Translations under genes and position numbers: made by a program | Notes under the pieces: generated by a model | The model's database searches: none | Told to the model about the DNA's origin: nothing | Seen by the model: the letters and a program-made list of their open reading frames with translations, nothing else | From: Verrucomicrobiota bacterium | Lineage (GTDB): Bacteria > Verrucomicrobiota > Verrucomicrobiia > Limisphaerales > J093 | Direction of reading: 5' to 3' | DNA length: 64,000 bases | Assembly (NCBI GenBank): GCA_022710935.1 | Contig: JAKLFY010000010.1 | Span: forward strand, 19,562 to 83,561 | Shown: positions 11,951 to 55,025 of the stretch, piece after piece | Layout of the letters: each line of letters opens with the position of its first letter | Numbering within the stretch: the first letter of the stretch is position 1

Positions 11951-12162
11951 TCCTTGCCGGGTCCGACGCGGACGGGAGTGCGTAACCGACACCGGATCGA
12001 CGCCGGGGGACGGCGCGGTGACCATGAGATGGCAGGTTTGCGGGTTTGTTTTTTTTGGGTTTTTGGGTTCGTTTCCGCTGAGATTGTCCTTTACAAGCGG
12101 GGCCGAATCGGGGTATCAGAACCGCTTGTTAATGATCTGAGCTGTATAGACACAAACCTCCC

Positions 12163-15259: not shown

Positions 15260-15766
15260 TTAGGCCCGTGTGCGGCGATAAGCCGCAAACCCAACCAAGC
15301 CCAGACCAGCGATCAGCGCGAACGAACCCGGTTCAGGGATCGGATGGTTAGCACTGACGTTGAACTTCATTGTGCCGGCAGGGTTGATTTTCGCGGTCAG
15401 CGCCCATACATCATCGCCCGTACCATGAGGCACCGAAGTGGTGGCCCAGCCCTGGGATCCAGCAATGTCGAACAGGCCAACCCCCAAGGTTGCCCACTGA
15501 GGTGCGCCACCGACGTTATGCTTACCCTTCACAGCGATGGTGTACATGTTGACCCCGCCACCGAGATCAATGACCTTTCCGGTGACGTCTGCAGTCCAGA
15601 AAGTACCGCCTGCAGTCCCCGTGTCACCATCATTCAACGGATTCCACGTGCCGTCGAAGATCAGGTCATCTCCGGTCTCCAGAATGACTGAAGTGGTAAT
15701 CGCTGCGCTCGCTGTGACTGCTCCCACGATGAGCGTGGCGACAGCCATTGTGAGTGTTTTCTTCAT
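15260..15766 (-). CDS. Small secreted PEP-CTERM sorting-domain protein
   Basis: ATG at 15766 (MKKTLTMAVATLIVGAVTASA is a signal peptide). The C-terminus PIPEPGSFALIAGLGLVGFAAYRRTRA has the PEP motif, a TM helix and a basic tail. An AT-rich upstream region includes AAGAAAGGTAAAG just before the ATG. Confidence 0.82.
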   Translation of the reverse strand: MKKTLTMAVATLIVGAVTASAAITTSVILETGDDLIFDGTWNPLNDGDTGTAGGTFWTADVTGKVIDLGGGVNMYTIAVKGKHNVGGAPQWATLGVGLFDIAGSQGWATTSVPHGTGDDVWALTAKINPAGTMKFNVSANHPIPEPGSFALIAGLGLVGFAAYRRTRA

Positions 15767-15889
15767 CTTTACCTTTCTTTTTACTGTTGATTCGGCCGAA
15801 ACACGACCTGGAGCGACCAAGTCGTGCGGCGTTTATATCACATAGCCAAATCCAGTCAAGTAATTTCTGGAAAAGTTTACGCTTGGATT

Positions 15890-27428: not shown

Positions 27429-27652
27429 GGCAGCATCATCCAATGGTGAGTTGGGAGGGTGCACTCCACGGACCTCTGACCCCGTCCCTCCCTCATCCGA
27501 TGCTCATCCTCGCGGCGGCGTGCTGCCCGCCCTCACCCGATTCGGCACGCGACTTGCTAATCCTCAGAATCGAACCGGGCGCAGCGTGAGCGGCGGGAGC
27601 CACTAGCACGGTCGAGTTGACCGGGCAAATCCTGCGCGCGGTCCAACGAGCC

Positions 27653-27982
27653 ATGTATGGCATGATGCAAGCGGCGGCATTGAAACCACACGATGGGGCG
27701 GCGCGGTACTCGGCTAAGCGCATGCTCAAGCCGGTCAATTTCTTCTGCAACGCGCCCGAGGCGCGTCATGTCACGGTGATCGGAGACTTCAATGACTGGC
27801 AGGCGGACGCGAATCCGATGCGCCGCCAACCCGACGGGGGCTGGGCGGCGCAGATTCCGCTGCACCACGGGCATCATCTCTACCTCTTCCTCGTGGACGG
27901 CCAACCCCTGCTCGATCCCCGCGCCCAGGGCTATGCGAGGAATGCGCGCAACGAACGGGTCTCGATGATCGCCGTCAGCTAG
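27653..27982 (+). CDS. Stand-alone CBM48 / glycogen-binding (isoamylase N-terminal, E-set) domain protein
   Basis: VNFFCNAPEARHVTVIGDFNDWQADANPMRRQPDGGWAAQIPLHHGHHLYLFLVDGQPLLDP matches the CBM48/AMPK-beta GBD pattern. The start is uncertain: ATG at 27653, 27662 or 27722, or TTG at 27617. Confidence 0.6.
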   Translation: MYGMMQAAALKPHDGAARYSAKRMLKPVNFFCNAPEARHVTVIGDFNDWQADANPMRRQPDGGWAAQIPLHHGHHLYLFLVDGQPLLDPRAQGYARNARNERVSMIAVS

Positions 27983-28114
27983 CCCGCATCGATCACTGGC
28001 TCCGCGCTGAACCTGATCCGGGCTAGTGTGGTGTCTCACAATTGGCTGGTGTTTCGTTGTGCCCAAAACGGCCTGGAGCGAGGCGCGAGGAAGGAGCATC
28101 CCCCAAGAAACTCG

Positions 28115-28156
28115 TTGACATCATCCAAGCCATGTACTATGTAAGACAAGGTACAT
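28115..28156 (+). promoter_or_regulatory. Sigma-70-like promoter overlapped by a PadR-type palindrome
   Basis: TTGACA (28115-28120), a 17-nt spacer, then TATGTA (28138-28143) in a locally AT-rich patch. Inverted repeat ATGTAC (28132-28137) / GTACAT (28151-28156) is present, plus ATGT-N10-ACAT. It lies 29 nt upstream of the ATG at 28185, with GAGAGGA as a possible RBS. Confidence 0.45.
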
Positions 28157-28184
28157 ATGAACACGCGGTAGAGAGGAACGCAGC

Positions 28185-28859
28185 ATGGGTGATGACGCGC
28201 GCCAACCGATTCGTCCCGTGAGCCGGGCGACGATCCTCGCCGTCGCCGGCTGGCTCCCGTTCTTCCTGGCATTGACGCAGGTCATCCGGCTTCAACCCGC
28301 GTTCGAGGACCCCACACGGTCCGTCGAGTTCCTGCCGGGCTGGACTGCGTATGCCGGCCCTGCCTCCGCGTACGGGGTGAATTGGCTTCTCCTGCTCTCG
28401 CTCAGCGGCGTGGGCGCTTTGGTTGGCTGGGGCCTGTGGATCGAGTGTATCGGCGCCCGCCATCTCGTTGTCTGGCCTCGGCTGCGTTGGTTCGTGCTGG
28501 CCGGGCCGCTCTCGGCGTGGACGTTGCTGGCTCTTTGGGGAGCGATGCAGGACGTCCGCCACCGCGATGACGTCTGGGCGGTGGCGTTGTTTCTCCACAC
28601 GCCGACACTTCTGGTCAGTTTCGCCATCGTCGGGTCCGGCTTGCGCTCAGTCCGCTCGGTGGGCGTGTGGGGCATGATCTTGCTGGCCTTGTGGGCCGTG
28701 ACGGCGGCGGTTCAGTTGCGGTTTGATCGACCCGGGCAGATCGATCCGGGCGACTGGATTGGTTTTGGGGGATCCATGTCGTTGGGATTGGCGGTGGCGT
28801 TGCGTGTGGCGATCTGGGGATGGGCCGAGCCGCCGCGGGTCCTGGCGCGAGCCTCATGA
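28185..28859 (+). CDS. Polytopic membrane protein of unknown function (about 6 TM), first gene of the PadR operon
   Basis: 224 aa with repeated hydrophobic helices (ILAVAGWLPFFLALTQVI, WLLLLSLSGVGALVGWGLWI, GMILLALWAVTAAV...). Its stop overlaps the PadR start as ATGA at 28856-28859. Confidence 0.6.
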   Translation: MGDDARQPIRPVSRATILAVAGWLPFFLALTQVIRLQPAFEDPTRSVEFLPGWTAYAGPASAYGVNWLLLLSLSGVGALVGWGLWIECIGARHLVVWPRLRWFVLAGPLSAWTLLALWGAMQDVRHRDDVWAVALFLHTPTLLVSFAIVGSGLRSVRSVGVWGMILLALWAVTAAVQLRFDRPGQIDPGDWIGFGGSMSLGLAVALRVAIWGWAEPPRVLARAS

Positions 28860-29203
28860 ACGACTATTTCGACAACTGGACGGTGCAGGTGCGCAAGGGT
28901 CTGTTGGACCTCTGCGTGCTCAGCGCGCTGGCCGAGAAGGAGCGGTACGGCTACGAGTTGGTGAAGACGCTGGTGGATCTGCCCGGACTGGGGGTCACCG
29001 AAGGAACGCTGTATCCGCTGCTCTCGCGCTTGCGCGTCCAGGGTTTGGTGACCGCGCGACTCGAGGAATCGCCCGAGGGGCCGGCGCGCAAGTATTACGC
29101 CTTGAGTTCAGCGGGCCGTGAGGTTTTGGGACTGATGCAGCAGTACATGGACGGCCTCAACCAGGGGGCCAGGATCCTGCGGAAACGAGGAGCAATCGCA
29201 TGA
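28856..29203 (+). CDS. PadR-family transcriptional regulator
   Basis: MNDYFDNWTVQVRKGLLDLCVLSALAEKERYGYELVKTL...TEGTLYPLLSRLRVQGLV...KYYALSSAGRE is the classic PadR winged-HTH. ATGA overlaps occur at both ends (28856-28859 and 29200-29203). Confidence 0.88.
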   Translation: MNDYFDNWTVQVRKGLLDLCVLSALAEKERYGYELVKTLVDLPGLGVTEGTLYPLLSRLRVQGLVTARLEESPEGPARKYYALSSAGREVLGLMQQYMDGLNQGARILRKRGAIA

Positions 29204-31818
29204 GGACGTGGACAGCCGCAGCCCGGGAGGAGCTGGAACAGTACTTCGATCGCGTGCGGACGGCACTCGAAGCGTCGGGGGCCGATGTCGCCGAGGTGAT
29301 CGACGATCTGCGCCGTCACATCGAGCAGGAGGCCGCGAGCTCCCAACTCGAAGTCGTGACCGAACAGGATGTCCGCCGGTTGCTGGCCCGGATCGGTGCG
29401 CCAGAGCCGCCGGCGTCCGAGGCTTCGGGGCGCCACGAAGGCCGGTCGAGCGCGCTTGCGACTGCCGATCCGAGGTCTCGAGGCCCTTTGGCCAACGCAA
29501 TGGCAATTGGCTTCGGCATTGTGCTGCCGACCATCGCACTGCTGATCGAATGGATGACTGGCATGTGCGCCGGGGCCTTCTTCGATCCGCTCCCGACACT
29601 CTGGCATGTGGCGTTGGTGGCGATGGTTCCCCTGACCAACGGACTCCTTTGGCGAGCCCTGCGCCAGGGTGGCGAAGCGGGTCGTGGCTGGGTGGGCTGG
29701 GCAAGCGGCGTGGCGGTCGGGGTCGAACTCTACTATGCGCTGCTCTTTCTCCCTTTGATGCTGCCGGGCTTGTTGGGCATTGTCTTTTACGGTTGGGGTC
29801 TGCTGCCACTATCCCCGGTGCTCTCGATGATCGTCACGCTCCTCCTGATCCGGCGTTTGCGAGTTCAGCGCGCGGCAATCGGCCCCGGCGCCGTTCGGGG
29901 CGTATGGCCAGGATTCGCTGTCGGCCTGGCAGGGCTGGTCTTCCTCGAGACCCCGGAAGCGTTGACCCGTTATGGGCTGACGCTGGCGACGGACGATGAT
30001 CCGAGGACCATCCGGCGCGGGATTCAACTGCTCCGCGACTGGGGCGACCGCGACGTGCTTCTGCGGGATTGCTACGGGCGCACGCGGGCGGCCGAGAACA
30101 TGGATCTGGTGGGGTGGGTCGTTACGGGCGGGCGCGCGACGCGACCCGAGAAGGCGCGCGAGATCTACTACCGTGTGACCGGGCAGCCGTTCAACAGCGT
30201 TCCCGCCCCGAAGGTGCGGACTGGGCGGGCACGCTGGGCCGGCCTGGACGATTGGACTTGGGACTTCGACCAGGCGGGCGAGGAAGTGGGCGGGCGAATC
30301 AAGGGTCTCACGTTGCACAGTTCACGGCTGGATGCCGTTGTGGAACCGGATGCGGCGATCGCCTATTGCGAATGGACGATGGAGTTCAAGAACGCCAGCG
30401 CTCGCCAGCGCGAGGCCCGCGCCCAAATCCTGCTCCCGCCGGGCGGCGTCGTCTCCCGCCTGACACTCTGGGTGAATGGAGAGGAGAGGGAGGCGGCGTT
30501 TGCAGGGCGTGGCGAGGTCAGAGAAGCGTACGAGAAGATCGTGCGCCAGCGGCGGGATCCTGTGTTGGTCACCACCGCCGGTCCGGACCGTGTCCTGGTG
30601 CAGTGTTTTCCCGTGCCGCCGGACGGCGGGATTATGAAAGTGCGTTTGGGGATCACGGCCCCGCTCGAAATGAAGTCGGCTGAGACGGGCCTCATGCGCT
30701 GGCCGCACGCGATCGAGAGGAACTTCACGATCCACGAGACGTTTCGTCATCAATTGTGGGTCGAGGGCCCGCGACCGCTGACCAGCTCGGGCGGCGCGCT
30801 TCAGACGGAGCAACCCAGGGAGGGCTGGCATGCGATCCGGGGGCAGGCCCAGGAAACCGACCTCTGGCTGGCCAGGAACTTTGTCCAAGTCTCGCGTGAA
30901 GGCGCCGTGCGCGAGGTCTGGGCTCGGGACACACGTGGCGCCACGCCGGACGTCGTGCGTCGGACGCTGCGCGCGGCGGCGGTTCGTCCGCCCGCTCGCA
31001 TGGTGCTGGTGATCGACGGTTCCCAAGGCATGGATCAGATGCCAGCCCTGGCAGAGGCCCTGGCCGAACTGCCTTCGACCGTCGAAGCGTCTGTGATGAT
31101 CGCCGGTGACGAACCGGTTTCGGTCGGAGCGGTCAGCACTGACACGCGCGACCGATTGGCCAGATGGAGGGTCCGTGGAGGGCAGGACAACGTGCCTGCG
31201 CTGGTCGAGGCATGGGATGTTGCCGTGCAGAGGCCCGACAGTCTGGTTGTCTGGATCTGTGCTCCGGTGCCGGTGGCGCTCGAGAGCGCGGAGGGGTTGC
31301 GTCAGCGCTACGAGCGCAGGCCCAACGGTCCGCGCCTGATGGCAGTGCAGACTCGAGTGGGGCCGAACCGCCTTCTTGAAGCGCTTGATGGGGTCGCCGC
31401 GGTTCAGTTGCTGCCGCGCACAGGAGATCTGGCTGCTGATCTTGGGGCGCTCTTCCGCTCATGGACGGACACAGGCAGCCGATGGGAGTGGGCGCAGGAG
31501 CGGGAGATCGACGTATCCGCCGCACCCCGAGAAGGGGCTGAGGCCTCGTCACACCTGGTGCGGCTCTGGGCCAAGGACGAGATCAGGCGATTAGCGGCGT
31601 CGCGGATGACGGAGGCGGCGGTCGAGATGGCTGGGCGTTATCAACTGGTCACGCCCGTTAGCGGCGCCGTCGTGCTCGAGACGGCGCAGCAGTACCGCGA
31701 CAGTGGGCTCGAACCGGTGCCGCCGTCCACTGTGCCGTCGATTCCGGAACCGTCCACCTGGGCCCTGCTCGCTCTGGGTTCTGGGTTCCTGCTGTTCATG
31801 CGGAGGCGCGGACCGTGA
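29200..31818 (+). CDS. DUF1700/HAAS-like N-terminal helical domain + polytopic TM region + VIT + vWA-like domain + PEP-CTERM sorting signal
   Basis: N-terminus EELEQYFDRVRTAL...VAEVIDDLRRHIEQEA...VTEQDVRRLLARIGAPE is the PadR-associated DUF1700 pattern. About 6-8 TM helices span 29480-29960. VIT-like: AIAYCEWTMEFKNASARQREARAQILLPPGGVVSRLTLWVNGEE...AYEKIV. vWA-like: MVLVIDGSQGM. C-terminus: SIPEPSTWALLALGSGFLLFMRRRGP. Confidence 0.8.
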   Translation: MRTWTAAAREELEQYFDRVRTALEASGADVAEVIDDLRRHIEQEAASSQLEVVTEQDVRRLLARIGAPEPPASEASGRHEGRSSALATADPRSRGPLANAMAIGFGIVLPTIALLIEWMTGMCAGAFFDPLPTLWHVALVAMVPLTNGLLWRALRQGGEAGRGWVGWASGVAVGVELYYALLFLPLMLPGLLGIVFYGWGLLPLSPVLSMIVTLLLIRRLRVQRAAIGPGAVRGVWPGFAVGLAGLVFLETPEALTRYGLTLATDDDPRTIRRGIQLLRDWGDRDVLLRDCYGRTRAAENMDLVGWVVTGGRATRPEKAREIYYRVTGQPFNSVPAPKVRTGRARWAGLDDWTWDFDQAGEEVGGRIKGLTLHSSRLDAVVEPDAAIAYCEWTMEFKNASARQREARAQILLPPGGVVSRLTLWVNGEEREAAFAGRGEVREAYEKIVRQRRDPVLVTTAGPDRVLVQCFPVPPDGGIMKVRLGITAPLEMKSAETGLMRWPHAIERNFTIHETFRHQLWVEGPRPLTSSGGALQTEQPREGWHAIRGQAQETDLWLARNFVQVSREGAVREVWARDTRGATPDVVRRTLRAAAVRPPARMVLVIDGSQGMDQMPALAEALAELPSTVEASVMIAGDEPVSVGAVSTDTRDRLARWRVRGGQDNVPALVEAWDVAVQRPDSLVVWICAPVPVALESAEGLRQRYERRPNGPRLMAVQTRVGPNRLLEALDGVAAVQLLPRTGDLAADLGALFRSWTDTGSRWEWAQEREIDVSAAPREGAEASSHLVRLWAKDEIRRLAASRMTEAAVEMAGRYQLVTPVSGAVVLETAQQYRDSGLEPVPPSTVPSIPEPSTWALLALGSGFLLFMRRRGP

Positions 31819-37546: not shown

Positions 37547-40500
37547 ATGGCGTCGGCGGCTATTGATGCGAGAGCGGACGATGGCATGGGCGCTTTCGGG
37601 AACATCCTGGTCTTCGCCACGGGCGTCCTCGCGGGAGGGTGGACGATCTGTGCGGCTTCCGTTTCGGCCCTGGTTTGGGGGACGGGCGAGGGGTTTCGCG
37701 CCGCCGCGCTCCCTGTGTTCGAGGGGGGGCGCGCAGGGTTCACGCTTCTTGCGGCATCGGAGACGGGCATCGCGTTCGCGAACATGCTGCCCGAGTCGCG
37801 TTTTGTGACCAACCAGGTGTTGCCCAACGGGGCGGGTGTCGCGGCGGGCGACGTCGACGGCGACGGCTGGTGCGATCTCTACTTTTGCGGGCTGAGTGTG
37901 AGCAACCGGCTCTACCGGAACCTGGGTGGCTGGCGTTTCGAGGACATCACCGGGGTGGCTGGCGTCGCGTGCGCGAACCGGGATTGCACGGGCGCCGCGT
38001 TCGCCGATCTCGATGGGGACGGCGATCTCGACCTGGTGGTCAACTCGATCGGCGGCGGGACCCACCTGTTCTTCAACAACGGGCGCGGCGGTTTTGCGGC
38101 CAGCCCGACCCCGTTGAATCCAGGGCGGGGCGGCACGTCGCTGGCATTGGCGGACGCCGACGGCGACGGGGACCTGGATTTGTACGTCGCCAATTACCGC
38201 ACTTCGACTTTGATGGACGCGCCCGGGACGCGCTTCACGCTCAAAGTGGTCGACGGGCGCCCGTTCGTCGCCGCGATCAACGGGCGTCCGCCGACCGATC
38301 TCGAGTGGACGAATCGGTTTCGGTTCAGCTTCGATCTGGGGTCGGGTGGCGTGGGGCGATTCGCCCGGGAGGAGTTGGGCGAGCCCGATGTGTTCTTTCT
38401 GAACGACGGGCACGGACGATTCACTCCCGTGCCGTGGACTGGCGGCGCGTTTCTGGACGAGGACGGCCAACCGCTGACGCAGCCGTTGTTCGACTGGGGG
38501 CTTTCGGTCCTGTTCCGCGATTTCAACGGAGACGGGCGCCCGGATCTCTATGTCTGCAACGACTTTGCCACGCCGGACCGTTTCTGGCTCAACGAAGGGC
38601 AGGGCCGGTTCCGGCTCGCGCCCAGGCTCGCGCTGCGTCAGACGAGCCTGGCGTCGATGTCGGGCGATGTTGCGGACATCGACCGGGACGGTCACGTCGA
38701 TTTCATGGTCACGGAGATGCTGAGTCCCGACCACAGCCGGCGGCTGACCCAGAGAAACGTCGTGCAGGGCGAGACGCCCGCCGGAACACAGATTGAAGGC
38801 CGTCCCCAGTACCCGCGCAACACCCTGTTCCTGAGCCGTGGGGACGGGACCTATGCCGAGATTGCGCAATATTGCGGTGTCGAGGCTTCAGAATGGTCCT
38901 GGGGACCGCTCTTCCTGGATGTCGACCTGGACGGTTACGAGGATGTGCTGGTGCCCAACGGATTCGAACGCGACAACATGAACGCGGACGTCCAGGCCCG
39001 CATCCATGCGGCCAAGGCGGGACGGAAGATGTTGACCGTGGACGAGCTGCAATTGCGCCGGATGTTCCCGCGTCTGAACACGGCCAATCTGGCCTTTCGG
39101 AACACCGGCGCGCTCGAGTTCGTGGAATGCAGCACGACGTGGGGATTCGACCAGCCGACCATTTCGCAGGGGGCGTGTCTTGCCGATCTCGACAACGACG
39201 GCGACCTCGATGTGGCGGTGAACAACATGAACAGCCCGGCCGGGATCTACCGCAATGAGTCGCTCGCACCGCGTCTGGGCGTCCGGCTGCGGGGACGTCC
39301 GCCGAACACCAGCGGCGCCGGGGCGCGCATCACGGTTTCGGGCGGACCGGTCGAGCAAAGCCAGGAGATGGTTTTGGGCGGACGCTATTGTTCGGGCGAT
39401 CAGGCGCAGCGCACCTTCGCGGCAGGCTCGGGGCGGTCGATGGATGTCAGGGTGCGGTGGCGCAGCGGGCGTGAGACGATCCTGACAAACATTGGTCCGA
39501 ATCGCCTGATCGAGATCATCGAGTCGGACGGAACCGCGTCGGTGTCATCAGCCGCGCCGATCGAAATCGGGCAGGGGACTGCCGGGGAGGGAGGTTTGCG
39601 GCGCGATCGCGGAGGCGAACGGGTTTCGGAGTCTCCGGCGCTCCGATTTGTTGACGTGAGCAGCGCGATTCGGCACGTGCATGTGGACGAGCCCTATGAC
39701 GATTTCGGGCGGCAACCGTTGTTGCCGCGGAAGCTGAGTCAGCTCGGCCCCGGCGCGGCCTGGTGGGACATGGACGGCGACGGGCGGGACGATTTGGTGA
39801 TTGGGGGCGGACGGGGCGGCGCGGCCGCGTTGTTCCTGAACCTGGGCGATGACCGTTTCAAGCGCTCGACGCACGAGGCGTGGCGTCGCGCGCTCGATCG
39901 CGATATGGCCGGGCTGGCCGGGATCGCCCCAGGCGAACTGTTGGGCGCGATGGCGAACTACGAAGACGGCGTCACGAATGGAGTCGGGGTCGCAGTTTGG
40001 CGCAAGGAGGTGTCGACCGGGGTGCTGCCGCTTGCCCCGGCGAGTTTTGGGCCGATTGCGGTTGCCGATTTCGACGGCGACGGCGACCTCGACCTGTTTG
40101 TTGGCGCCCGCGCGGGGGCGGGGCGCTATCCGGAGGCGGTTGCGTCGGCACTCTGGCGGCGGGAAGGGGCGGGGTTTGAACTGGACTCCGAGAACACGGC
40201 GCGGCTGCCGCAAGGGTTGGTGAGCAGTGCGATCTGGACGGAACTGACGGGGGACGGCTGGCCCGAGTTGGTGCTGGCCTGCGATTGGGGGCCCATTCGG
40301 ATGTTTCGCAACGAGCGCGGACGGCTCAGCGAGTGGAATGTGCCGGTGAACGTTCAGCGTTCAACGTTCAACGTTCAACATTCAACCCCCAGCCGCGCCC
40401 TCGCCATCAACCCTCTTCCATCAACGCTCGACGAAATGACAGGCTGGTGGAACGGGGTGGGGGCGGGCGATTTCGACAACGATGGGCGGCTCGATTTGGT

Positions 40501-41440
40501 GGTTGCCAACTGGGGCTCGAACACCCGCTACCAGCGCTGGCGTCCTCAGGCCCTTCGGTTGACGTTTGGCGACTTCGATGGCGATGGAGCGATCGAGACG
40601 ATCGAGAACCACTACGCGCCCGCACTGCGCGCGCACGCGCCGGACCGCATGCTGGATGTCGTGACCCGGGCGATTCCCAGCCTGGCCGGGCGTTTCCCGA
40701 ACCACCAGTCCTGGGCCGCCGCCACCATCGACGCGGTCCTGGGCGAGTGGCGCGATTCCGCACGCCAGGTCGAGGCCGTTTGGCTCGAGTCGACGCTGCT
40801 GCTCAACCGGGACGATCATTTCGAGGTCCGGGTGTTGCCGGCGGAAGCGCAATTCGCCCCTGCATTTGCGGTCTGCGTTGGCGATGCGGATGGCGACGGC
40901 AACGAGGATGTCTTTCTGAGTCAGAACTTCTTCGGGGTGGGCGCCGACACGTCGCGTTCCGATGCGGGACGGGGCCTCTGGTTGCGAGGCGATGGGCGGG
41001 GCGGTCTCGATCCGGTGCGGGGCGAGGATTGCGGCGTGCGGGTTTACGGCGAGCAGCGCGGGGCTGCGTTGGCAGACTTCGATGCGGACGGGCGCGTGGA
41101 TTTTGCGGTCACGCAGAGCGGCGCGGAGACGAAGCTGTATCGCAATGTCGGGGCCAGGCCGGGATTGCGGGTCCGGATCGAGGGGCCGGCGCAGAATCCG
41201 CTGGGACTCGGTGCGGTCATGCGCCTGCATTCGGGGGACACGGCCGGGGCGGCGCGCGAGGTGCGCGGGGGGGGCGGGTATTGGTCTCAGGACAGCCCCG
41301 TTGGCGTACTCGGGGCGGCGGGGGCCCCCACGGCGCTCGAGGTGCGTTGGCCGGGCGGACGCGTCACTTGGACGCCAGTGCCGCCGGGTCTGAGGGAGAT
41401 CGTGGTGCGCGCGGGTGCGGGAAGCGAACGAGTCGAGTGA
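37547..41440 (+). CDS. FG-GAP/VCBS repeat + UnbV_ASPIC (CRTAC1-family) protein, tandem double module, paralogue 1
   Basis: Many FG-GAP calcium loops (GDVDGDGWCDLYF, ADLDGDGDLDLVV, ADADGDGDLDLYV, ADLDNDGDLDVAV...). Two UnbV_ASPIC-like segments are present: GARITVSGGPVEQSQEMVLGGRYCSGD...VRVRWRSGRE, and MRLHSGD...GGGYWSQDS...VRWPGGRV. ATG at 37547, alternative at 37586. Confidence 0.85.
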   Translation: MASAAIDARADDGMGAFGNILVFATGVLAGGWTICAASVSALVWGTGEGFRAAALPVFEGGRAGFTLLAASETGIAFANMLPESRFVTNQVLPNGAGVAAGDVDGDGWCDLYFCGLSVSNRLYRNLGGWRFEDITGVAGVACANRDCTGAAFADLDGDGDLDLVVNSIGGGTHLFFNNGRGGFAASPTPLNPGRGGTSLALADADGDGDLDLYVANYRTSTLMDAPGTRFTLKVVDGRPFVAAINGRPPTDLEWTNRFRFSFDLGSGGVGRFAREELGEPDVFFLNDGHGRFTPVPWTGGAFLDEDGQPLTQPLFDWGLSVLFRDFNGDGRPDLYVCNDFATPDRFWLNEGQGRFRLAPRLALRQTSLASMSGDVADIDRDGHVDFMVTEMLSPDHSRRLTQRNVVQGETPAGTQIEGRPQYPRNTLFLSRGDGTYAEIAQYCGVEASEWSWGPLFLDVDLDGYEDVLVPNGFERDNMNADVQARIHAAKAGRKMLTVDELQLRRMFPRLNTANLAFRNTGALEFVECSTTWGFDQPTISQGACLADLDNDGDLDVAVNNMNSPAGIYRNESLAPRLGVRLRGRPPNTSGAGARITVSGGPVEQSQEMVLGGRYCSGDQAQRTFAAGSGRSMDVRVRWRSGRETILTNIGPNRLIEIIESDGTASVSSAAPIEIGQGTAGEGGLRRDRGGERVSESPALRFVDVSSAIRHVHVDEPYDDFGRQPLLPRKLSQLGPGAAWWDMDGDGRDDLVIGGGRGGAAALFLNLGDDRFKRSTHEAWRRALDRDMAGLAGIAPGELLGAMANYEDGVTNGVGVAVWRKEVSTGVLPLAPASFGPIAVADFDGDGDLDLFVGARAGAGRYPEAVASALWRREGAGFELDSENTARLPQGLVSSAIWTELTGDGWPELVLACDWGPIRMFRNERGRLSEWNVPVNVQRSTFNVQHSTPSRALAINPLPSTLDEMTGWWNGVGAGDFDNDGRLDLVVANWGSNTRYQRWRPQALRLTFGDFDGDGAIETIENHYAPALRAHAPDRMLDVVTRAIPSLAGRFPNHQSWAAATIDAVLGEWRDSARQVEAVWLESTLLLNRDDHFEVRVLPAEAQFAPAFAVCVGDADGDGNEDVFLSQNFFGVGADTSRSDAGRGLWLRGDGRGGLDPVRGEDCGVRVYGEQRGAALADFDADGRVDFAVTQSGAETKLYRNVGARPGLRVRIEGPAQNPLGLGAVMRLHSGDTAGAAREVRGGGGYWSQDSPVGVLGAAGAPTALEVRWPGGRVTWTPVPPGLREIVVRAGAGSERVE

Positions 41441-41645
41441 TGTTCTCCGGTTTTATCTTGCAGGTGGCGGGAGGCTGGTGCCTAACATCGGGGACAGTTC
41501 AAGAATGCACTTTGGGGCATTCGATGTCAGAGGTGACCTTTCGACAACGCCTTCCGCGTGTAGAGGTGGCGGCCTGGGTGGGTGCCCAGGCTCCGCGGGC
41601 ATGGCGCAGGGACGGGGATCCGATGACGAACAGAGACGGAATCCT

Positions 41646-44600
41646 ATGCACAAGAGATTGATACAGGGGTTTGCGGCGATGGCTCTGGCTGGCGCGACCG
41701 CGCTGGCGGGATCCTTCACCTCGAACTTCAGCGACCCCTTCCAACTGGGGTTCAGCCTGACGAGCAATGGCGCCATGCGCGCGGACGGGGTGACCCCGTT
41801 CATGCCGGCGGTCGAGGACGGGCATCTTGTCCTCACGTACAACGAGGCGGGTGCGATCGGGACGTTCATCCTGGATGATCTGGACGCGTACCAGGCGATC
41901 GAGAGTTTCACCGCGAGGTTCAAGCTGCAGATCGGGCCCGGATCGGCCGAGCCAGCAGACGGCGCAGCGTTCTGTTTCAGCCCGGAGATCTATTCGTACA
42001 CCTCGAACTTTGGCGAGCAAGGCGTGGGCACCGGGATCACCGTCAGCTTTGACATCTACGTCAACGCTGACGTGGGCGAGACCTCCCCGGCCATCAAGGT
42101 GAACTACGAGGGAACCACCGTGGCGATCGCGCCGTTTGCCAAGCCCGAGATGGTGACGAGCCAGTTCGAAGACGTCTTCATTCAGCTCACCCGGAGCGGC
42201 ACGCTGAACGTGGGCTACAAGGGGGCGATCGTGTTCACCAACCTGGTCCTGCCCGACTTCGTTCCCTCCGCGGGCCAGTTCGCCATCGGCGCCCGCGCCG
42301 GCGGCCAGAGCGCGCTCCATCAGGTCGACGATCTCACCGTGACGACCGTGGTTCAGGGCGCAGGCGTGGGGCCTTCCATCACGTCGCATCCCCAGAGTCA
42401 GACCGTCGACGAGGCGGCGACCGCCACGTTCACCATCGGCTTCGACGGTTCGGCGCCACTGGCTTTTCAGTGGTACAAGAACAACGCACCCATTGACGGG
42501 GCGACCGATCCGACGCTGACCTTGACGGGCGTCAGCTTCAGCGACAACCAGAGCAAGTACAAGTGCGAGGTCAGCAACACGCTGGGGACGGCGACCTCGA
42601 ACGAGGCGACACTGACAGTGGTTCAGGACACGACCCCGCCGGTGTTGATCTCGGCGCAAGGGAACACGGACTTCCTGGGCGTCGTGGTGACGTTCTCCGA
42701 GCCGGTGGCGGTCGACAGTGGCGGCAACAAGGACAACTATGCCATTGCCGGCCTGACCATCAACTCGGCGACGGTGAACGGGGCGACCGTGGTGCTGGCC
42801 ACCTCGAAACAGTCCGAGGGGACGAGCTACACGCTGGTGGTGAATAACGTCAAGGACCGGTCGGCCAGCGGCAACACCATTGCCGCCAATAGCCAGGCCA
42901 CATTCAAGACCTTTGCGTTCATGCTCGGGACGGTGCTTCACAAGAAGTACGAGAACGTCAGCGACAACGCCGGCGGCGATCCTGCGAACCTGTTCAACGA
43001 TCCGCGGTATCCGAACCAGCCGGATCGGGCCGATCTCCTCACGGCGTGGGAGTATCCCCCGAACGGTGCGGGGCGCGATGCGGTCGCGGATCCGACGCGG
43101 AATTACTTCGACACCATCGAGGGCTATTTCATCCCGCCTGAGAACGGCAACTACGTGTTCCTGACGGCCGGTGCGGACCGGTGGTGGCTCTATTTGAGCA
43201 CGGACGACAATCCGGCGAACCTGGTGATGATCGCGGCGGAACCAGGTGGTTGGAGCAATCCGCGCGGTTGGACGCAGATCCACTCCGGGAGCCTCGAAGC
43301 CCGCCGGTCGGACCAGTCGTTGCACAATCAATGGGCGACGGCTCCGACCATCACGCTCGAGAAGGGCAAGCGGTATTACATGCTGCAGATCCATCATGAC
43401 CCGAGCTGGTGCGGGGCAGACGACTTCGGCACCACCTACATCAAGGAGGGCGACACGGATCCGGCCAACGGCAGCGTGCCGACCCTGACTGGCGGAGTGA
43501 TCGGTTGCCTGTTGGACCCGACGGGGTCGTCGGTGACCATCACCCAGCATCCGCAGGACGCGAACATCGAGGCGGGGCGCAGTGCTGTGTTTAGCGTGGC
43601 TGCGACCGGCTCCTCGCTCTACGGTTCACTCCTCACCTACCAATGGCAGCGGCGCGCCCCGGGCGCGGGGACATGGACGGACATCGCGGGGGCCAACGCG
43701 GCCACCTACACGACACCCGCGCTGACGCTTGCGGACAATGGCGCCCAGTATCGTGCCATCTGCATGGTGCCGGCGATCAACGAGCCCACCGAGGCGGCGA
43801 CGCTGACGGTGTTCGCCGACACCCTGGCGCCCACCCTCGTCTCGGCTCGTGGAAGCAGCGACTTCTTGACTGCGGTGGTCCTTTTCTCGGAGCCGGTCGA
43901 CGCGGTGAGCGGCGGCAACATTCTGAACTACAACATTCCGGGGCTTTCGGTGAGTTCGGCGACAGTCCTCGGTCAGGAAGTGCTTCTCGCCACGAGTCGT
44001 CAGACCGAGGGCGCGATCTACACGATCACCGTGAACAACGTCAAGGACCGCTCGGTTGCGGGCAACACGATCGCCCCGAACAGCACTGTCCAGTTCCGCG
44101 GCTTCGTCTTCACGCCGGGCAACGTGCTTCGCAAGAAGTATAACAACATGAGCGACGCCATGGGCGAGGATCCAGCCAACCTGTTCAACGATCCGCGCTA
44201 CCCCCTCCAGCCAGATCGAATGGACCTCGTGTCGGCGTTCGAGTATCCGGCCAATGGTGCTGGCCGCGACGCGGTGGCGGACCCAAACCGCCTCTACTAT
44301 GACACGCTCGAGGCGTTCTTCGCTCCGCCCGAGGACGGCAACTACGTGTTCTTCACCGCCGGGGCCGATCGCTGGTGGCTCTATCTGAGCACTGACGAAG
44401 ACCCGGCGAACCTCTGCCTGATCGCGGCCGAACCCGGCGGTTGGAGCGATCCGCGCGGCTGGCTGCAAACCTATGACAGCCCGCCCGAGGATCATTTGGC
44501 CGCTCATCGGTCCGATCAGTATCCCCTCACCGAGTGGCCTTACGGCAACACCATCACGCTCGAAGCCGAGAAGCGCTATTACATGCTGATGGTCCATCAC

Positions 44601-45749
44601 GATCCGAGTTGGGCCGGCGGCGACTGGTACGCGGCCACCTACAAACTCGAATCCGAGCTCGACCCGGCCAACGGGACGGCGCCGACCCTGACTGGGAACG
44701 TTGTCGGCAGCTTCGTGCAGGCCCCGCTCAAGCTGGAGATCACCCAACAGCCTCAGAGCGTGACGACGCATGGATGGGATCAGGCCGTCTTCACGGTGGA
44801 CGCCACCACCGATGTTTCCTACCCGCCGACCTATCAGTGGCGACGCGATGGCACCCCGATCCCGGGGGCCACGGGCAAGACCTTCTCCCTGGTCACGAGC
44901 CTCGCCGACAACGGCGCCAAGTTCGATTGCGTCGTTTCCCTGCTCAATTATCCCAACCCTGTCACCAGTGACGCGGCGACGCTCACGGTGTTGGGCGACG
45001 CGGTCTTTGTGCCGGGCTCGCTCAAGGAGGAGCGGTTCAACGGCACCAGCCGTCAGGCCGTCGAGATCGGCAACGTTGGCGCGCCCGAATTCCTGGGGAC
45101 GCTGACTGCGTTCTCGGCCGGGGTTGACGTGGCCGACAACTTCACCCGGCGCGTGAGCGGGTTGTTCGTCCCGCAGACCGCGGGCAACTATGTCTTCTTT
45201 GTCTGCTCGGACGACGACAGCGACTTGTTCATCAGCACGGACGATCAGCCCGCGAACAAGCGGCTGGTGGCCCAGGAACAGGGCTGGAGCGCCGCGTTGC
45301 AGTGGCACACCGCCAACGGCGGCGACCCGACCATGAAACGTTCCGATCTCTGGTCGCCTGACGGAGGCGTGACCGTTCCTTGGGCGGCGGGCATCGCCCT
45401 CGAAGCGAACAAGCGCTACTACATCGAGGGTGTGCAGCACGAAGGAACCGGCGGCGACAACTTCGCGGCGACCTTCATCGTCCAGTACGGAGCCGAGCCG
45501 GCCAACGGCGACCCGAGCGCCTTCGTGCCCGCGGTCATCGGGCGGATGGACGCGCCGGCTACGGATCAGCCCAGGATCACACGCATCGTCGAGAATGCCG
45601 ACGGCACGATCACGGTGGAATGGGCCGGCGGCGGGACACTCCAGGCTGCGACCAGCATCCTGGGCCCGTGGCAGGATGTGACAGGCGCGACCAGCCCGTA
45701 CACGTTCACGCCGGAGGCGCCAATCATGTTCGGTCGGATTCGCCGGTAG
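41646..45749 (+). CDS. Giant secreted adhesin-like protein: L-type-lectin-like domain + 3x [Ig-like + (SbsA-Ig-like) + PA14-like] modules
   Basis: ATG at 41646 (MHKRLIQGFAAMALAGATALAG is a signal peptide). Lectin-like ADGAAFCFSP...GITVSFDIY; Ig-like PSITSHPQSQTV...FQWYKNNAPI...YKCEVSN; PA14-like GYFIPPENGNYVFLTAGADRWWLYLS. The C-terminal module ends ...MFGRIRR. Confidence 0.8.
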   Translation: MHKRLIQGFAAMALAGATALAGSFTSNFSDPFQLGFSLTSNGAMRADGVTPFMPAVEDGHLVLTYNEAGAIGTFILDDLDAYQAIESFTARFKLQIGPGSAEPADGAAFCFSPEIYSYTSNFGEQGVGTGITVSFDIYVNADVGETSPAIKVNYEGTTVAIAPFAKPEMVTSQFEDVFIQLTRSGTLNVGYKGAIVFTNLVLPDFVPSAGQFAIGARAGGQSALHQVDDLTVTTVVQGAGVGPSITSHPQSQTVDEAATATFTIGFDGSAPLAFQWYKNNAPIDGATDPTLTLTGVSFSDNQSKYKCEVSNTLGTATSNEATLTVVQDTTPPVLISAQGNTDFLGVVVTFSEPVAVDSGGNKDNYAIAGLTINSATVNGATVVLATSKQSEGTSYTLVVNNVKDRSASGNTIAANSQATFKTFAFMLGTVLHKKYENVSDNAGGDPANLFNDPRYPNQPDRADLLTAWEYPPNGAGRDAVADPTRNYFDTIEGYFIPPENGNYVFLTAGADRWWLYLSTDDNPANLVMIAAEPGGWSNPRGWTQIHSGSLEARRSDQSLHNQWATAPTITLEKGKRYYMLQIHHDPSWCGADDFGTTYIKEGDTDPANGSVPTLTGGVIGCLLDPTGSSVTITQHPQDANIEAGRSAVFSVAATGSSLYGSLLTYQWQRRAPGAGTWTDIAGANAATYTTPALTLADNGAQYRAICMVPAINEPTEAATLTVFADTLAPTLVSARGSSDFLTAVVLFSEPVDAVSGGNILNYNIPGLSVSSATVLGQEVLLATSRQTEGAIYTITVNNVKDRSVAGNTIAPNSTVQFRGFVFTPGNVLRKKYNNMSDAMGEDPANLFNDPRYPLQPDRMDLVSAFEYPANGAGRDAVADPNRLYYDTLEAFFAPPEDGNYVFFTAGADRWWLYLSTDEDPANLCLIAAEPGGWSDPRGWLQTYDSPPEDHLAAHRSDQYPLTEWPYGNTITLEAEKRYYMLMVHHDPSWAGGDWYAATYKLESELDPANGTAPTLTGNVVGSFVQAPLKLEITQQPQSVTTHGWDQAVFTVDATTDVSYPPTYQWRRDGTPIPGATGKTFSLVTSLADNGAKFDCVVSLLNYPNPVTSDAATLTVLGDAVFVPGSLKEERFNGTSRQAVEIGNVGAPEFLGTLTAFSAGVDVADNFTRRVSGLFVPQTAGNYVFFVCSDDDSDLFISTDDQPANKRLVAQEQGWSAALQWHTANGGDPTMKRSDLWSPDGGVTVPWAAGIALEANKRYYIEGVQHEGTGGDNFAATFIVQYGAEPANGDPSAFVPAVIGRMDAPATDQPRITRIVENADGTITVEWAGGGTLQAATSILGPWQDVTGATSPYTFTPEAPIMFGRIRR

Positions 45750-45768
45750 TTTTACCAGGCATGACACA

Positions 45769-45800
45769 AGAGACCGGGCTCGCGCCCGGTCTCTTTTTTT
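45769..45800 (+). terminator. Rho-independent terminator after the giant adhesin gene
   Basis: An 11-bp perfect stem AGAGACCGGGC-TCGC-GCCCGGTCTCT followed by TTTTTT, 20 nt after the stop at 45749. Confidence 0.85.
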
Positions 45801-45954
45801 GCCCTTGCATGGGGGTTGATTGCGGCCTAATCGCTTTCCGTGACCCTTGACATGGAAAACAGCGCTACGCCGCCGCGGTTCAAAACGCTTCGCCTCTTCA
45901 AGCGTATTTGGCGAAGTGGCGGGGCCTTTGGAGTGCGGCGGTTTACGGCCGCTT

Positions 45955-46272: not shown

Positions 46273-46286
46273 CTGAGCAGGCCGCG

Positions 46287-53990: not shown

Positions 53991-55025
53991 ATGCGCGCGG
54001 CGGGGCGCGAGCGGCATTCCGGGATGACGACAACAACAGAGAGCCAGACCGACGAGCGGGGCGAGTTCCGGCGGGAATTCGCCCGTGTTTGGCGGCAGAT
54101 GTCCGACAAAGGGCTCCTCCTGGGGCTGGCGGCCGCATGGTTTGCCCTGTTCCATTTCCTGGGCAACTCGACTTTTGGCTACGTCGACAGTCCTTCCCTG
54201 TTTGGCTGGCTCTGGGGCGCGTACAGTTCGAGTTCGTTTCCCGGCGGACCGATTGTGAAGCTGCTCAACGCCGACGACGGGTACTGTGTCCTGATCCCGT
54301 TCCTGGTGCTTGGTCTGTTCTGGTCGAGGCGTCAACAATGGCTGGCAATTCCGCGGGAAACGTGGTGGCCGGGCCTGGTCGGGCTGGCGCTGGCGACGAT
54401 GCTGCATGTGTTGGGCTACCTGGTGCAGCAGCCCCGGGTTTCACTTCTGGCGTTTCTGGGGGGCGGGTACGCGCTGATCGCGCTGGTCTGGGGGTGGCGG
54501 TTCGCCGCCGGCGTGTTTTTCCCCTATGTGCTGCTTGTCTTCTGTGTTCCCCTGGGCACGGTCAGCGATCCGATCACCGTCCCGCTCCGGCAGGTCTCGA
54601 CGGACGTTTCGGTGGTGATTGTGCGGGATGTGTTGGGCATACCGGTGATTCAGCAGGGGGTACAGATCAGCGATCCGCGCGGGTCGTACACCTACGAAGT
54701 CGCCGCGGCATGCAGCGGGATTCGGAGTTTGATTGCCCTGTTCGCCCTGGCCACGATCTATGGGTTTCTGACATTCACGCGCCTCTGGAAACGTCTGCTG
54801 GTGATCCTGCTCGTTGTCCCCCTGACCCTGGCGGGCAACATCCTGCGGCTGGTCTGCATCGTGATCGCGTCCGAGGCCTTCGGACAGAGCGCGGGGGAGT
54901 TCGTGCACGACTGGTTCGGATTCGTCACGTTCGGCCTGGCGCTTCTGGTGCTGTTCGGCGTCGGGAACTGGCTGCGCGAGCCGGCGTCGGCCCGGGTTCC
55001 GTCGGGAGTGCCTCAAGCCGTATGA
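53991..55025 (+). CDS. Exosortase (Xrt family; subtype not assignable by eye)
   Basis: Polytopic membrane protein with the catalytic-Cys motif AAACSGIRSL and the Asn/Arg motif GNILRL. The start could also be the ATG at 54024 (MTTTTESQ). Confidence 0.8.
   Translation: MRAAGRERHSGMTTTTESQTDERGEFRREFARVWRQMSDKGLLLGLAAAWFALFHFLGNSTFGYVDSPSLFGWLWGAYSSSSFPGGPIVKLLNADDGYCVLIPFLVLGLFWSRRQQWLAIPRETWWPGLVGLALATMLHVLGYLVQQPRVSLLAFLGGGYALIALVWGWRFAAGVFFPYVLLVFCVPLGTVSDPITVPLRQVSTDVSVVIVRDVLGIPVIQQGVQISDPRGSYTYEVAAACSGIRSLIALFALATIYGFLTFTRLWKRLLVILLVVPLTLAGNILRLVCIVIASEAFGQSAGEFVHDWFGFVTFGLALLVLFGVGNWLREPASARVPSGVPQAV

Follow-up and report, generated by a model that had tools for sequence, protein, structure and literature searches.

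A three-gene cassette in a Verrucomicrobiota genome probably constitutes a small, autoregulated HAAS-PadR operon whose predicted sensor is an exosortase substrate. The cassette combines two known kinds of system, namely the dyad of a PadR repressor with a HAAS-bearing membrane protein and the exosortase-linked VIT-vWA substrate. Its arrangement is non-random: dozens of independent loci repeat it with differing flanking genes, and the flanks vary among the loci of relatives while the cassette itself stays conserved. An earlier note had described this architecture, and every sequence claim that it made was confirmed on checking. Its interpretation fared less evenly, in that the HAAS-type partnership with PadR and the family's link to exosortases stood, whereas the exosortase 22 kb away is only a candidate partner and the signal relayed to PadR is a hypothesis.

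Gene order and the HAAS-padR association

Within the window (the whole 64,000-nucleotide stretch of DNA analysed), the three genes lie on the + strand and are joined by ATGA stop/start overlaps at 28856-28859 and 29200-29203, as had been reported; the coordinates and both overlaps were verified in the sequence. The operon begins with ORF1 (28185..28859), encoding a 224-aa six-helix membrane protein. This is followed by a gene for a PadR-family winged-helix repressor (28856..29203; 115 aa counted from the ATG within ATGA, the longest ORF beginning at 28820), which shares an ATGA overlap with each neighbour, and by the gene for an 872-aa protein (29200..31818) carrying a HAAS domain, five transmembrane (TM) helices, a VIT-vWA region and a PEP-CTERM tail. 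The second product is indeed a canonical PadR (PF03551; 72.1 bits, cut-off 27), and in L001, L002 and L004 the VIT gene is preceded by the gene for an orthologue about 80% identical to it. The earlier estimate of about six TM segments for ORF1 agrees with six hydrophobic segments in its hydropathy profile and with the six helices that AF2 models at low confidence (pLDDT 61.6). ORF1 matched no Pfam or NCBIfam family, and its model matched no fold in the PDB. Homologues retrieved with an iterative HMM occur in 18 genome loci, in every one directly 5' of padR.

The HAAS domain (PF22564) occupies residues 1-69 of the 872-aa protein (29200..29406, + strand). Its assignment, made previously as DUF1700/HAAS, is upheld by the isolated N-terminal 72 aa, which score 28.7 bits against a cut-off of 27, whereas the full-length protein scores 23.1; PF22564 is matched by 14 of 18 family N-termini. 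AF2 places its helices at 6-26, 30-47 and 55-65, ending in G66-A-P68, of which P68 is invariant and G66 at least 90% conserved. Residues 69-93 form a disordered linker after the domain.

Across 80 genome loci, padR adjoins 59 of the 61 assessable HAAS-fused genes, directly upstream and mostly overlapping, whereas none of 17 HAAS-less relatives has a padR within 10 kb (Fisher 3e-15, not corrected for phylogeny or shared ancestry). The pattern in a rough and poorly resolved NJ tree suggests that gain or loss has happened several times. The counts support the earlier proposals that the large protein is the HAAS-type partner of the adjacent PadR and that such fusions co-occur with PadR in other genomes. 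Two HAAS-type loci, L006 and L054, are missing padR, and therefore either the protein can exist without its regulator or these assemblies are faulty. These two loci, together with the subthreshold full-length HAAS score, might suggest that the genes are neighbours by chance, with PadR regulating something else and the N-terminal helices forming no functional HAAS domain. However, the isolated domain clears the cut-off, padR co-occurrence divides sharply between the two kinds of locus, the overlapping stop/start codons are conserved, and the operator described below travels along with the cassette. Chance neighbourhood is already contradicted by these comparative data, and we consider it extremely improbable.

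HAAS-PadR dyads have been proposed to act as two-component-like systems in which a GxP groove contacts PadR, a mechanism that is a prediction only in the literature (Ravi et al., mSystems 2024, PMC11237479). As in those dyads, the window holds a standalone padR beside a membrane protein with an N-terminal three-helix HAAS domain, a GxP motif and a multi-TM module and, as in some of the published examples, a TM-protein gene 5' of padR. The fusions reported there involve PspC, LiaI-LiaF-TM, Toastrack, FtsX-like, FtsW/RodA and VanZ domains, pentapeptide repeats and unnamed 2/4/6-TM modules, and neither the text nor the supplement of this HAAS-defining paper mentions VIT, vWA, PEP-CTERM or exosortases. 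The sensor in the window differs by its ITIH-like ectodomain, its sorting signal and its occurrence in the phylum Verrucomicrobiota. We found no description of the fusion, in keeping with the earlier view that this is not a described system.

A predicted operator at the cassette promoter

A 23-bp imperfect palindrome, TGTACTATGT-AAG-ACAAGGTACA (28133..28155), is the predicted PadR operator, a feature absent from the earlier note. The two 11-nt arms of this inverted repeat flank a 3-nt spacer; the family consensus is nGTACYWTGY-nnT-RCAAGGTASn, and the palindrome of L048 is perfect. A position weight matrix (PWM) derived from 27 sites was scanned over both strands of 85 loci and the window (1.42 Mb). 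Matches are confined to one place per locus, just 5' of the first cassette gene, which holds either one site or a pair spaced 17 nt apart. Sites were found in 54 of 59 padR loci versus none of the 17 HAAS-less loci, and 28133-28155 is the sole match in the window. No match fell outside the cassette promoter anywhere in the 1.42 Mb, so that no downstream regulon emerges and the PadR system may control only itself.

Of the non-coding DNA, only the promoter-operator stretch is conserved between the window and its 92%-identity relatives L005 and L008. It includes TTGACA (28115..28120, + strand), a possible -35 box of which TTGAC is kept in both relatives, and DNA farther upstream is unalignable. 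This assignment is tentative because a strict sigma-70 scan yielded no full promoter at the palindrome.

Autorepression has been reported for Listeria PadR operons that encode DUF1700 or DUF1048 partners, namely LltR-Lmo0600 (DUF1700), LstR-Lmo0421 and LftR-LftS (DUF1048) (PMC6624303, PMC4517056). The operon in the window likewise encodes a HAAS-family partner, and autorepression is predicted for it. The Listeria systems differ in belonging to Firmicutes, in having other partner architectures and in carrying neither a sorting signal nor VIT-vWA domains, and the action of the partner on PadR is not established for them either.

The restriction of the operator to the cassette's own promoter, and the strict translational coupling of padR to the HAAS protein gene, would also be expected of dosage control without a signal. 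Such an operon would use HAAS to titrate PadR one-to-one, thereby gauging its own membrane product with no external input. However, titration alone needs neither a large, highly conserved ectodomain nor a flexible 25-residue HAAS linker, and a constitutive anti-repressor co-made with its repressor would provide no useful regulation. This possibility therefore seems to us quite improbable.

Membrane topology and an ITIH-like ectodomain

The five-span membrane domain (residues 96-263; 29485..29988, + strand), delimited by AF2 helices, has conserved residues E117, C123, D129-P-x-P, H136, N147 and GxGLLPLxP. Positive-inside counts (K+R) are 3.6 and 3.1 in loops 2 and 4 versus zero in loops 1 and 3. 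Together with the AF2 helices, these counts predict a cytoplasmic HAAS domain, as the earlier idea of a relay across the membrane presupposes, and a VIT-vWA region outside, in the periplasm. Residues 99-217 are similar to the membrane part of MSEP-CTERM proteins (TIGR04286), and the five-span domain is common to HAAS-less relatives.

Perhaps envelope stress is sensed in the membrane by this domain and/or the 6-TM ORF1, with VIT-vWA being the regulated effector rather than the sensor, a reading modelled on the proposal for PspC/LiaF-linked HAAS-PadR systems. Described HAAS fusions are mainly to multi-TM modules tied to membrane stress, a TM-protein gene 5' of padR is found among those examples as well (PMC11237479), and the operons of the window's clade also take in ORF1 and other small membrane genes. 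Yet more distant cassettes lack ORF1 while HAAS-VIT is constant, PspC, LiaF and Toastrack domains were not found by Pfam/NCBIfam profile searches, and HAAS-less relatives, which have no regulator, conserve the five-span domain just as well. We judge stress sensing of this kind to be unlikely.

The ectodomain contains a beta-rich VIT domain (residues ~370-600; 30307..30999, + strand), for which PF08487 scores 39.4 bits at residues 386-476 (cut-off 26.5) and which is matched in 33 of 33 family members. A vWA-like alpha/beta domain follows (residues ~601-770; 31000..31509, + strand). Of these two earlier assignments, VIT is thus supported by Pfam, whereas the 872-aa protein has no Pfam VWA match and its vWA domain is recognized by an ITIH4 profile match (family profile versus ITIH4 vWA, E 0.0019) and by fold. 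The AF2 model (pLDDT 85.4) aligns over 583 columns with the heavy chain of ITIH1 (6FPY; E 1e-18), Foldseek also matches vWA domains such as 4fx5, and strands alternate with helices. The MIDAS motif, D606-G-S608-Q-G, is partly degenerate as first noticed, retaining the first D and S but lacking the second S and T; GGQDN lies at 660-664. A C-terminal helical region (RLWA...YQLVTPVSGAVVLE; 31552..31704, + strand) is the third stretch aligned with ITIH4, and its RLWA...YQLVTPVSGAVVLE residues are invariant in alignment A1.

Eukaryotic inter-alpha-trypsin inhibitor heavy chains, blood proteins represented by ITIH1 (PDB 6FPY) and ITIH4 (9C4F), are the best structural match across the VIT, vWA and C-terminal regions. 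Unlike these chains, to which it is only ~13% identical, the protein in the window has a degenerate MIDAS, membrane anchoring at both ends and a bacterial origin. ITIH chains are cleaved near the C-terminus and then transferred to a glycan, which by analogy parallels what exosortase substrates are suspected to undergo.

Sorting signal, exosortases and the proposed switch

The 872-aa protein ends, as claimed, in a PEP-CTERM sorting signal (VPSIPEPSTWALLALGSGFLLFMRRRGP; 31735..31818 with the stop codon, + strand) that exceeds both relevant cut-offs (PF07589, 22.3 vs 20.7; TIGR02595, 24.6 vs 16). Residues V845, P846, P849, E850 and P851 are invariant. The core 5TM-VIT-vWA-PEP-CTERM architecture defines a large unnamed family of 1281 clusters at E<=1e-30, and HAAS is present in about half of them; that the core also occurs without HAAS or PadR is a point absent from the earlier note. 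Similarity to TIGR04477 (XrtN-system VIT), TIGR04286 (MSEP-CTERM/XrtK) and TIGR02921 (PEP-CTERM integral membrane), which share the multi-span N-terminus, VIT, vWA-like domain and sorting tail, is weak but significant, with scores far under the cut-offs (120.9 vs 250, 58.5 vs 150 and 19.5 vs 200, respectively). Some bacterial VIT-vWA proteins terminate in GlyGly-CTERM, LPXTG or, in Verrucomicrobium spinosum, PEP-CTERM tails, and the interchangeable tails of VIT/vWA/ITI-homology proteins pair with matching sorting enzymes (Haft and Varghese 2011, PMC3237569). Unlike the protein in the window, they were described with neither a transcription-factor link nor a HAAS domain.

A dedicated XrtQ-like exosortase, scoring under the XrtQ family cut-off, and an EpsI-like gene lie directly 3' of the VIT gene in 14 of 17 HAAS-less loci and in six HAAS+PadR loci, as for other VIT-vWA substrates with dedicated exosortases. 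This adjacent enzyme, the family's usual partner, had not been noted before. The tail covaries with its presence: PEPE tails occur in 19 of 20 loci with an adjacent exosortase versus 3 of 49 without, where a canonical PEP[S/G] tail is typical. The previously suggested link between family and exosortase is thereby substantiated. The form in the window departs from such dedicated substrates in having gained HAAS and PadR and lost the adjacent exosortase; its Verrucomicrobiota clade has no adjacent XrtQ-like gene, and the tail is canonical PEP-CTERM. Judging from these sequence features, processing in this clade is therefore most likely performed by the genome's general XrtA-like exosortase.

The candidate enzyme in the window (53991..55025, + strand) scores 129.7 with TIGR02602 (cut-off 105.55), 163 with the XrtA model (cut-off 208) and only E 7e-6 with the HMM of the relatives' XrtQ-like enzymes. 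The earlier note was correct that an exosortase lies downstream, at a distance of 22.2 kb. However, this XrtA-like enzyme belongs to an EPS locus outside the operon, with an EPS priming glycosyltransferase gene (55772-57169) 3' of it, the housekeeping genes lysS, tatD, ilvA and rnhC intervene, and it is syntenic with the cassette in no relative. The canonical PEP-CTERM tail is the sole basis for its candidate link to the 872-aa protein. A second PEP-CTERM protein in the window (15260..15820, - strand; PF07589, 22.9 vs 20.7; tail HPIPEPGSFALIAGLGLVGFAAYRRTRA) gives this exosortase more than one candidate substrate.

Exosortase processing might itself be the signal to PadR. The attached PEP-CTERM helix would pack on the five-span bundle while HAAS holds PadR, and cleavage or transfer would free PadR to repress, such that cassette transcription would reflect how much substrate still awaits processing; where the cassette is complete, the exosortase gene is itself part of the operon. 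A dedicated exosortase is genetically linked to the family, six loci (L048 and others) string padR, HAAS-VIT, xrt and an epsI-like gene behind the operator, the tail covaries with exosortase type, and loss of one of two anchors would sharply alter a protein held at both ends. However, the operon in the window's clade lacks an exosortase, so the feedback would be unable to increase processing and might escalate unchecked, and HAAS-less relatives use the same exosortase without any regulator. This version is the less probable one, although it deserves consideration.

We favour the broader interpretation that the locus is likely to be a HAAS-PadR-type cassette in which two proteins, under autorepression, form a self-contained transmembrane signalling system. 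A PadR dimer would occupy the palindrome at 28133-28155, overlapping the promoter, and repress orf1-padR-vit, whose translation would be coupled. The 872-aa product is predicted to hold HAAS in the cytoplasm, to span the membrane with five helices, to expose the ITIH-like VIT-vWA region to the periplasm and to re-enter the membrane through its PEP-CTERM helix. The state of the ectodomain or anchor would be relayed through the five-span bundle to HAAS, which would capture or release PadR and so set cassette transcription. That state may reflect a bound surface or EPS ligand, exosortase removal of the C-terminal anchor, or both. The sequence comparisons show the domain composition, the logic of the topology, the joint occurrence of HAAS and padR, the conserved and exclusive operator, the synteny with exosortases in relatives and the covarying tail; that PadR binds the palindrome and touches HAAS, which way the switch works and what it senses are inferred from them. 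Elsewhere in the sensor's large family, each member would have a dedicated XrtQ-like exosortase encoded next to it and would be the only substrate of that enzyme. The cassette would represent an undescribed yet widespread way of tying gene control to a surface protein that undergoes sorting.

Architecture of the cassette and of its 872-aa protein

The cassette consists of three forward-strand ORFs: ORF1 (28185-28859, 224 aa), padR (28856-29203, 115 aa when started at the ATG within the ATGA; the longest ORF starts at 28820) and the VIT gene (29200-31818, 872 aa). All three have high third-position GC. ATGA overlaps at both gene junctions, together with the arrangement of the flanking genes (an acetyl-CoA hydrolase/GNAT gene and a small CBM48 ORF on the 5' side, lysS and tatD on the opposite strand on the 3' side), define a compact three-gene unit. 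A strict sigma-70 scan yielded no promoter at the cassette start, and a terminator search 3' of the VIT gene yielded none. The CBM48 ORF just 5' of the cassette (27617-27982, +; 121 aa) encodes a CBM48/AMPK glycogen-binding module alone (PF02922, 41.7 bits) and is missing in the syntenic relative L085. Elsewhere in the window, three very large ORFs of 1297, 1444 and 1265 aa occur in succession at 37547-50051 (+), with high coding GC3 and almost no NCBIfam family matches. A candidate paralogue of similar length to the VIT gene product (84-2717, 877 aa) proved to be an unrelated metallophosphoesterase.

The second gene encodes a member of the PadR family (PF03551, residues 21-91, 72.1 bits against a gathering cut-off of 27). 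The ORF1 product carries six hydrophobic helices, matches no Pfam or NCBIfam family and has only 10 close homologues in a large database. Its AlphaFold2 (AF2) model is of low confidence (pLDDT 61.6), and a fold search with this model returned no match (best E 0.6).

Proteins of the HAAS class are recognized by three consecutive helices with a conserved GxP at the end of the third (PMC11237479). The AF2 model of the 872-aa protein, which draws on 33 homologues and is confident (pLDDT 85.4, pTM 0.77), places helices at residues 6-26, 30-47 and 55-65, ending in G66-A-P68 with P68 invariant. The HAAS model PF22564 scores 23.1 bits with the whole protein, below the cut-off of 27, and 28.7 bits when residues 1-72 are scanned alone, and it matches 14 of 18 family N-termini (best E 2.9e-9). 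The earlier note's reading of the N-terminal ~70 aa as a DUF1700/HAAS-type domain therefore stands. A profile of this region compared with PDB sequences retrieved only designed helical proteins and noise, and hence no solved relative.

A disordered linker (residues 69-93) leads to a membrane helix bundle (96-263), which is followed in the model by a beta-rich domain, an alpha/beta domain and a final helix at 853-870. Basic residues cluster in loops 2 and 4 and in the C-terminal tail and are absent from loops 1 and 3. This distribution gives a topology with the N terminus inside, five spans, an external ectodomain and a C-terminal helix that returns into the membrane, so that HAAS shares its side of the membrane with PadR. 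Several polar residues are invariant, also in relatives that lack HAAS: E117, C123, D129-P-x-P, H136 and N147 within the membrane domain (window 29545-29640) and C291-Y-G in a juxtamembrane position (30070-30078). They look like a metal or catalytic site at the periplasmic face.

The remaining domain assignments of the earlier note were also borne out, with one shift in the grounds for them. The VIT domain is clear (PF08487, 39.4 bits against 26.5) and is matched by all 33 family members. The vWA-like domain is correct by fold, though the Pfam VWA models do not match the window protein and VWA_CoxE is weakly matched by only 1 of the 33. This judgement follows from the top Foldseek match of the model, ITIH1 (6FPY, E 1e-18, 583 columns), and from the match of the family profile to the vWA domain of ITIH4 (E 0.0019), whose C-terminal region is matched too. 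Both place a Rossmann-like alpha/beta fold after VIT, as in ITIH chains; Foldseek also matches the vWA entries 4fx5 and ArnB. The MIDAS motif (DxSxS ... T ... D) is indeed partly degenerate, since only the first Asp and Ser are kept: D606 is invariant, position 608 is S or T, position 610 is variable (G in the window) and GGQDN has Q in place of the Thr. The protein ends in IPEPS, 16 hydrophobic residues and RRRGP, a PEP-CTERM tail that exceeds the cut-offs of both PF07589 (22.3 against 20.7) and TIGR02595 (24.6 against 16).

Association of HAAS with PadR and a predicted operator

In a HAAS-PadR dyad, the gene for the HAAS protein is expected always to neighbour one for a standalone PadR-like wHTH. 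The linkage between the HAAS fusion and padR that the note had proposed extends well beyond the window. Co-occurrence was tabulated over 80 genome loci, with HAAS-type genes counted only where upstream DNA was available (n=61). A homologue of the cassette PadR is encoded directly 5' of 59 of these 61 genes, as it is in the window, and the padR stop and VIT-gene start usually overlap or lie no more than 6 nt apart. In contrast, none of 17 HAAS-less relatives has a cassette PadR within 10 kb. These 17 share the 5-TM domain and the ectodomain and end in a PEP-CTERM tail, and their N-terminal tails are short. Because the flanking genes differ between loci, the cassette moves as a unit. In a rough and poorly resolved NJ tree the two forms are intermixed in one of two main groups, which suggests, tentatively, that HAAS and PadR were gained or lost together more than once.

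The two exceptions are L006 and L054. At L006 (9300-10010, corresponding to window 27617-29203; Verrucomicrobia bacterium ADurb.Bin006) the VIT gene is 90% identical, ORF1 and padR are absent, and the start of the CBM48-like ORF joins the ribosome-binding region of the VIT gene directly; either the regulator was lost in a natural deletion or the MAG is misassembled. L054 lacks both padR and the operator. At a further locus, L027, the HAAS region (10001-10291) and the remaining VIT gene (10197-12647) are separate ORFs, reflecting either a frameshift or a split gene. A HAAS-less subgroup from Acidobacteriota and others (L075, L077, L079 and L080) shares a short conserved cytoplasmic motif, (L)ELPDTPxNRLLxQ, ahead of the first membrane helix, which may serve as an alternative docking peptide.

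Upstream of ORF1, just 3' of a conserved TTGACA, lies an imperfect 23-bp palindrome (28133-28155; TGTACTATGT-AAG-ACAAGGTACA). Relatives of 92% identity conserve the sequence from TTGAC to ORF1, palindrome included, and DNA farther 5' cannot be aligned. At L048 the palindrome is perfect (TGTACCTTGT-GTT-ACAAGGTACA) and lies 44 nt 5' of padR; this form led us to drop the first operator guesses, ATGT-N8-ACAT and ATGTAC-N13-GTACAT, for a 10+3+10 palindrome. A position weight matrix built from 27 sites was then scanned over both strands of 85 loci and the window (1.42 Mb). Matches occur at one place per locus, either as a single site or as two sites 17 nt apart, just 5' of the first cassette gene, and are present in 54 of 59 padR loci and exactly once in the window. 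There are none in HAAS-less loci or elsewhere in the 1.42 Mb, and thus no regulon near these loci beyond the cassette itself. Where ORF1 or extra small genes precede padR, the site is shifted upstream along with them; because its position tracks whichever gene comes first, the predicted operator marks the operon start. These patterns provide strong indirect evidence that PadR autoregulates the cassette through the predicted operator, and the arrangement can be likened to the autoregulated PadR operons of Listeria (PMC6624303).

Five loci carry operator-like palindromes in pairs whose starts are exactly 17 nt apart (L043:942-981, L047:9608-9647, L050:9217-9256, L058:3299-3338 and L061:9600-9639), a spacing that suggests tandem PadR dimers. 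In clades other than the window's (L001:4122-5660, L004:6011-7646, L013, L049, L060 and L067) the operator lies 1.4-2 kb 5' of padR, and one or two extra small genes ahead of the ORF1 homologue create a five- or six-gene operon. The products of these small genes share conserved C-termini (...FLNWF(F/L)D) and match no Pfam family.

The wider family and its exosortases

A word-indexed search found more than 2100 clusters of relatives, nearly all full-length (865-917 aa), and searching the 50%-identity representatives exhaustively returned 3884 hits, of which 1281 reach E<=1e-30. Among the 141 best full-length representatives, HAAS is present in 71 and absent in 70, and nearly all have a PEP-CTERM-like tail. 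Scanning one genome per species (185,579 species genomes) recovered 409 stretches encoding relatives. Most of these come from MAGs of Verrucomicrobiota, and some from Planctomycetota, Acidobacteriota and Desulfobacterota. Those nearest to the window (90-92% identity) are likewise Verrucomicrobiota MAGs, among them isolates AnMBR.bin335 and ADurb.Bin006. The cassette is also present in complete genomes, for instance OW818681.1 and CP170459.1. The family is not covered by any NCBIfam model. Matches of the window protein to the XrtN-system VIT protein TIGR04477 (120.9 bits, relatives 114-120, where the equivalog needs 250), MSEP-CTERM TIGR04286 (58.5 against 150) and the PEP-CTERM integral protein TIGR02921 (19.5 against 200) are weak and fall far under the cut-offs. 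A search of the open-access literature on XrtQ, XrtN, XrtK and MSEP-CTERM found no relevant paper.

The exosortase that the earlier note placed 22 kb downstream is real (53991-55025, +; TIGR02602 (8TM_EpsH), 129.7 bits against 105.55), but it resides at an EPS locus and is set apart from the cassette by housekeeping genes. We call it only XrtA-like because its score with the XrtA model, 163, is below the 208 required. The window encodes a second PEP-CTERM protein (15260-15820, -; 186 aa, tail PIPEPGSFALIAGLGLVGFAAYRRTRA), which argues that this exosortase is a general enzyme. No exosortase is encoded beside the VIT gene in the window, where lysS follows on the opposite strand, or elsewhere in its clade.

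Twenty relatives, comprising 14 of 17 HAAS-less and 6 HAAS-type (HAAS plus PadR) loci, have an adjacent exosortase. A phmmer search with the window's XrtA-like enzyme had found none near the relatives, which was misleading; neighbour-gene clustering revealed that the two genes directly 3' of the VIT gene at these loci encode a divergent exosortase (Pfam Exosortase_EpsH, 68-83 bits; nearest NCBIfam model XrtQ, under cut-off) and a ~175-aa protein similar to the C-terminal portion of XrtT. For the latter gene (L048:6468-6983, L071:13224-13778 and equivalents) the XrtT match is limited to positions ~290-445, and no Pfam family is matched. It may encode an EpsI-like accessory domain that in XrtT, and apparently in L055, is part of the enzyme itself. 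Six cassettes, for example that of L048, are therefore complete, in the order operator-padR-HAAS/VIT-xrt-epsI-like.

The sorting tail varies with the presence of this enzyme. Where an exosortase is adjacent, PEP is followed by Glu at 19 of 20 loci; without one, Glu follows at only 3 of 49, and Gly or Ser predominates, as in canonical PEP-CTERM tails. The window's clade has a canonical tail and no adjacent exosortase. The simplest reading is that the clade lost an ancestral dedicated enzyme and that the general exosortase took over the protein.

A possible relay from ectodomain to repressor

The HAAS-PadR dyad was itself defined computationally, as a prediction, and many fusions have been listed, but none with VIT, vWA, PEP-CTERM or exosortase (PMC11237479). 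Precedents exist for VIT-vWA proteins whose sorting tails are interchangeable and which have dedicated sorting enzymes (PMC3237569), and NCBIfam model names also attest such pairings. The combination of HAAS-PadR with VIT-vWA/PEP-CTERM, the PEPE/XrtQ-like subfamily (named for the Glu after PEP) and the predicted operator appear to be undescribed.

The best-supported general model, which we consider likely, is an autorepressed HAAS-PadR cassette in which the state of an exosortase-substrate ectodomain would be relayed through the 5-TM bundle to HAAS, which would bind or release PadR accordingly. We infer that PadR binds the palindrome and that HAAS contacts PadR; which way the switch works and what it senses are likewise inferred. 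A signal sensed by the ectodomain or the anchor is favoured over pure membrane stress. In a more specific and rather improbable version, the signal would be processing by the exosortase. Once the enzyme removed or transferred the PEP-CTERM anchor, this would be sensed via the 5-TM bundle and would feed back on gene expression, such that the HAAS-PadR add-on would let the substrate report, through transcription, on the processing of its own C-terminus.

Exosortases and PEP-CTERM proteins are widespread, and to our knowledge how these enzymes act on their substrates, and how cells monitor that action, is largely unknown. Our analyses define a large unnamed protein family with two forms and a PEPE sorting-signal variant that tracks a dedicated XrtQ-like exosortase. 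The cassette unites two fields, in that a protein built for handling by an exosortase bears a predicted repressor docking domain and the predicted operator is found only before the cassette. With three genes and one 23-bp site, it offers a compact, testable system whose expression could report ligand binding or exosortase processing. If the processing version is true, the cassette would represent the first description of a regulatory checkpoint in exosortase-dependent protein sorting; it would also offer a natural read-out for these enzymes, whose reaction is poorly defined.
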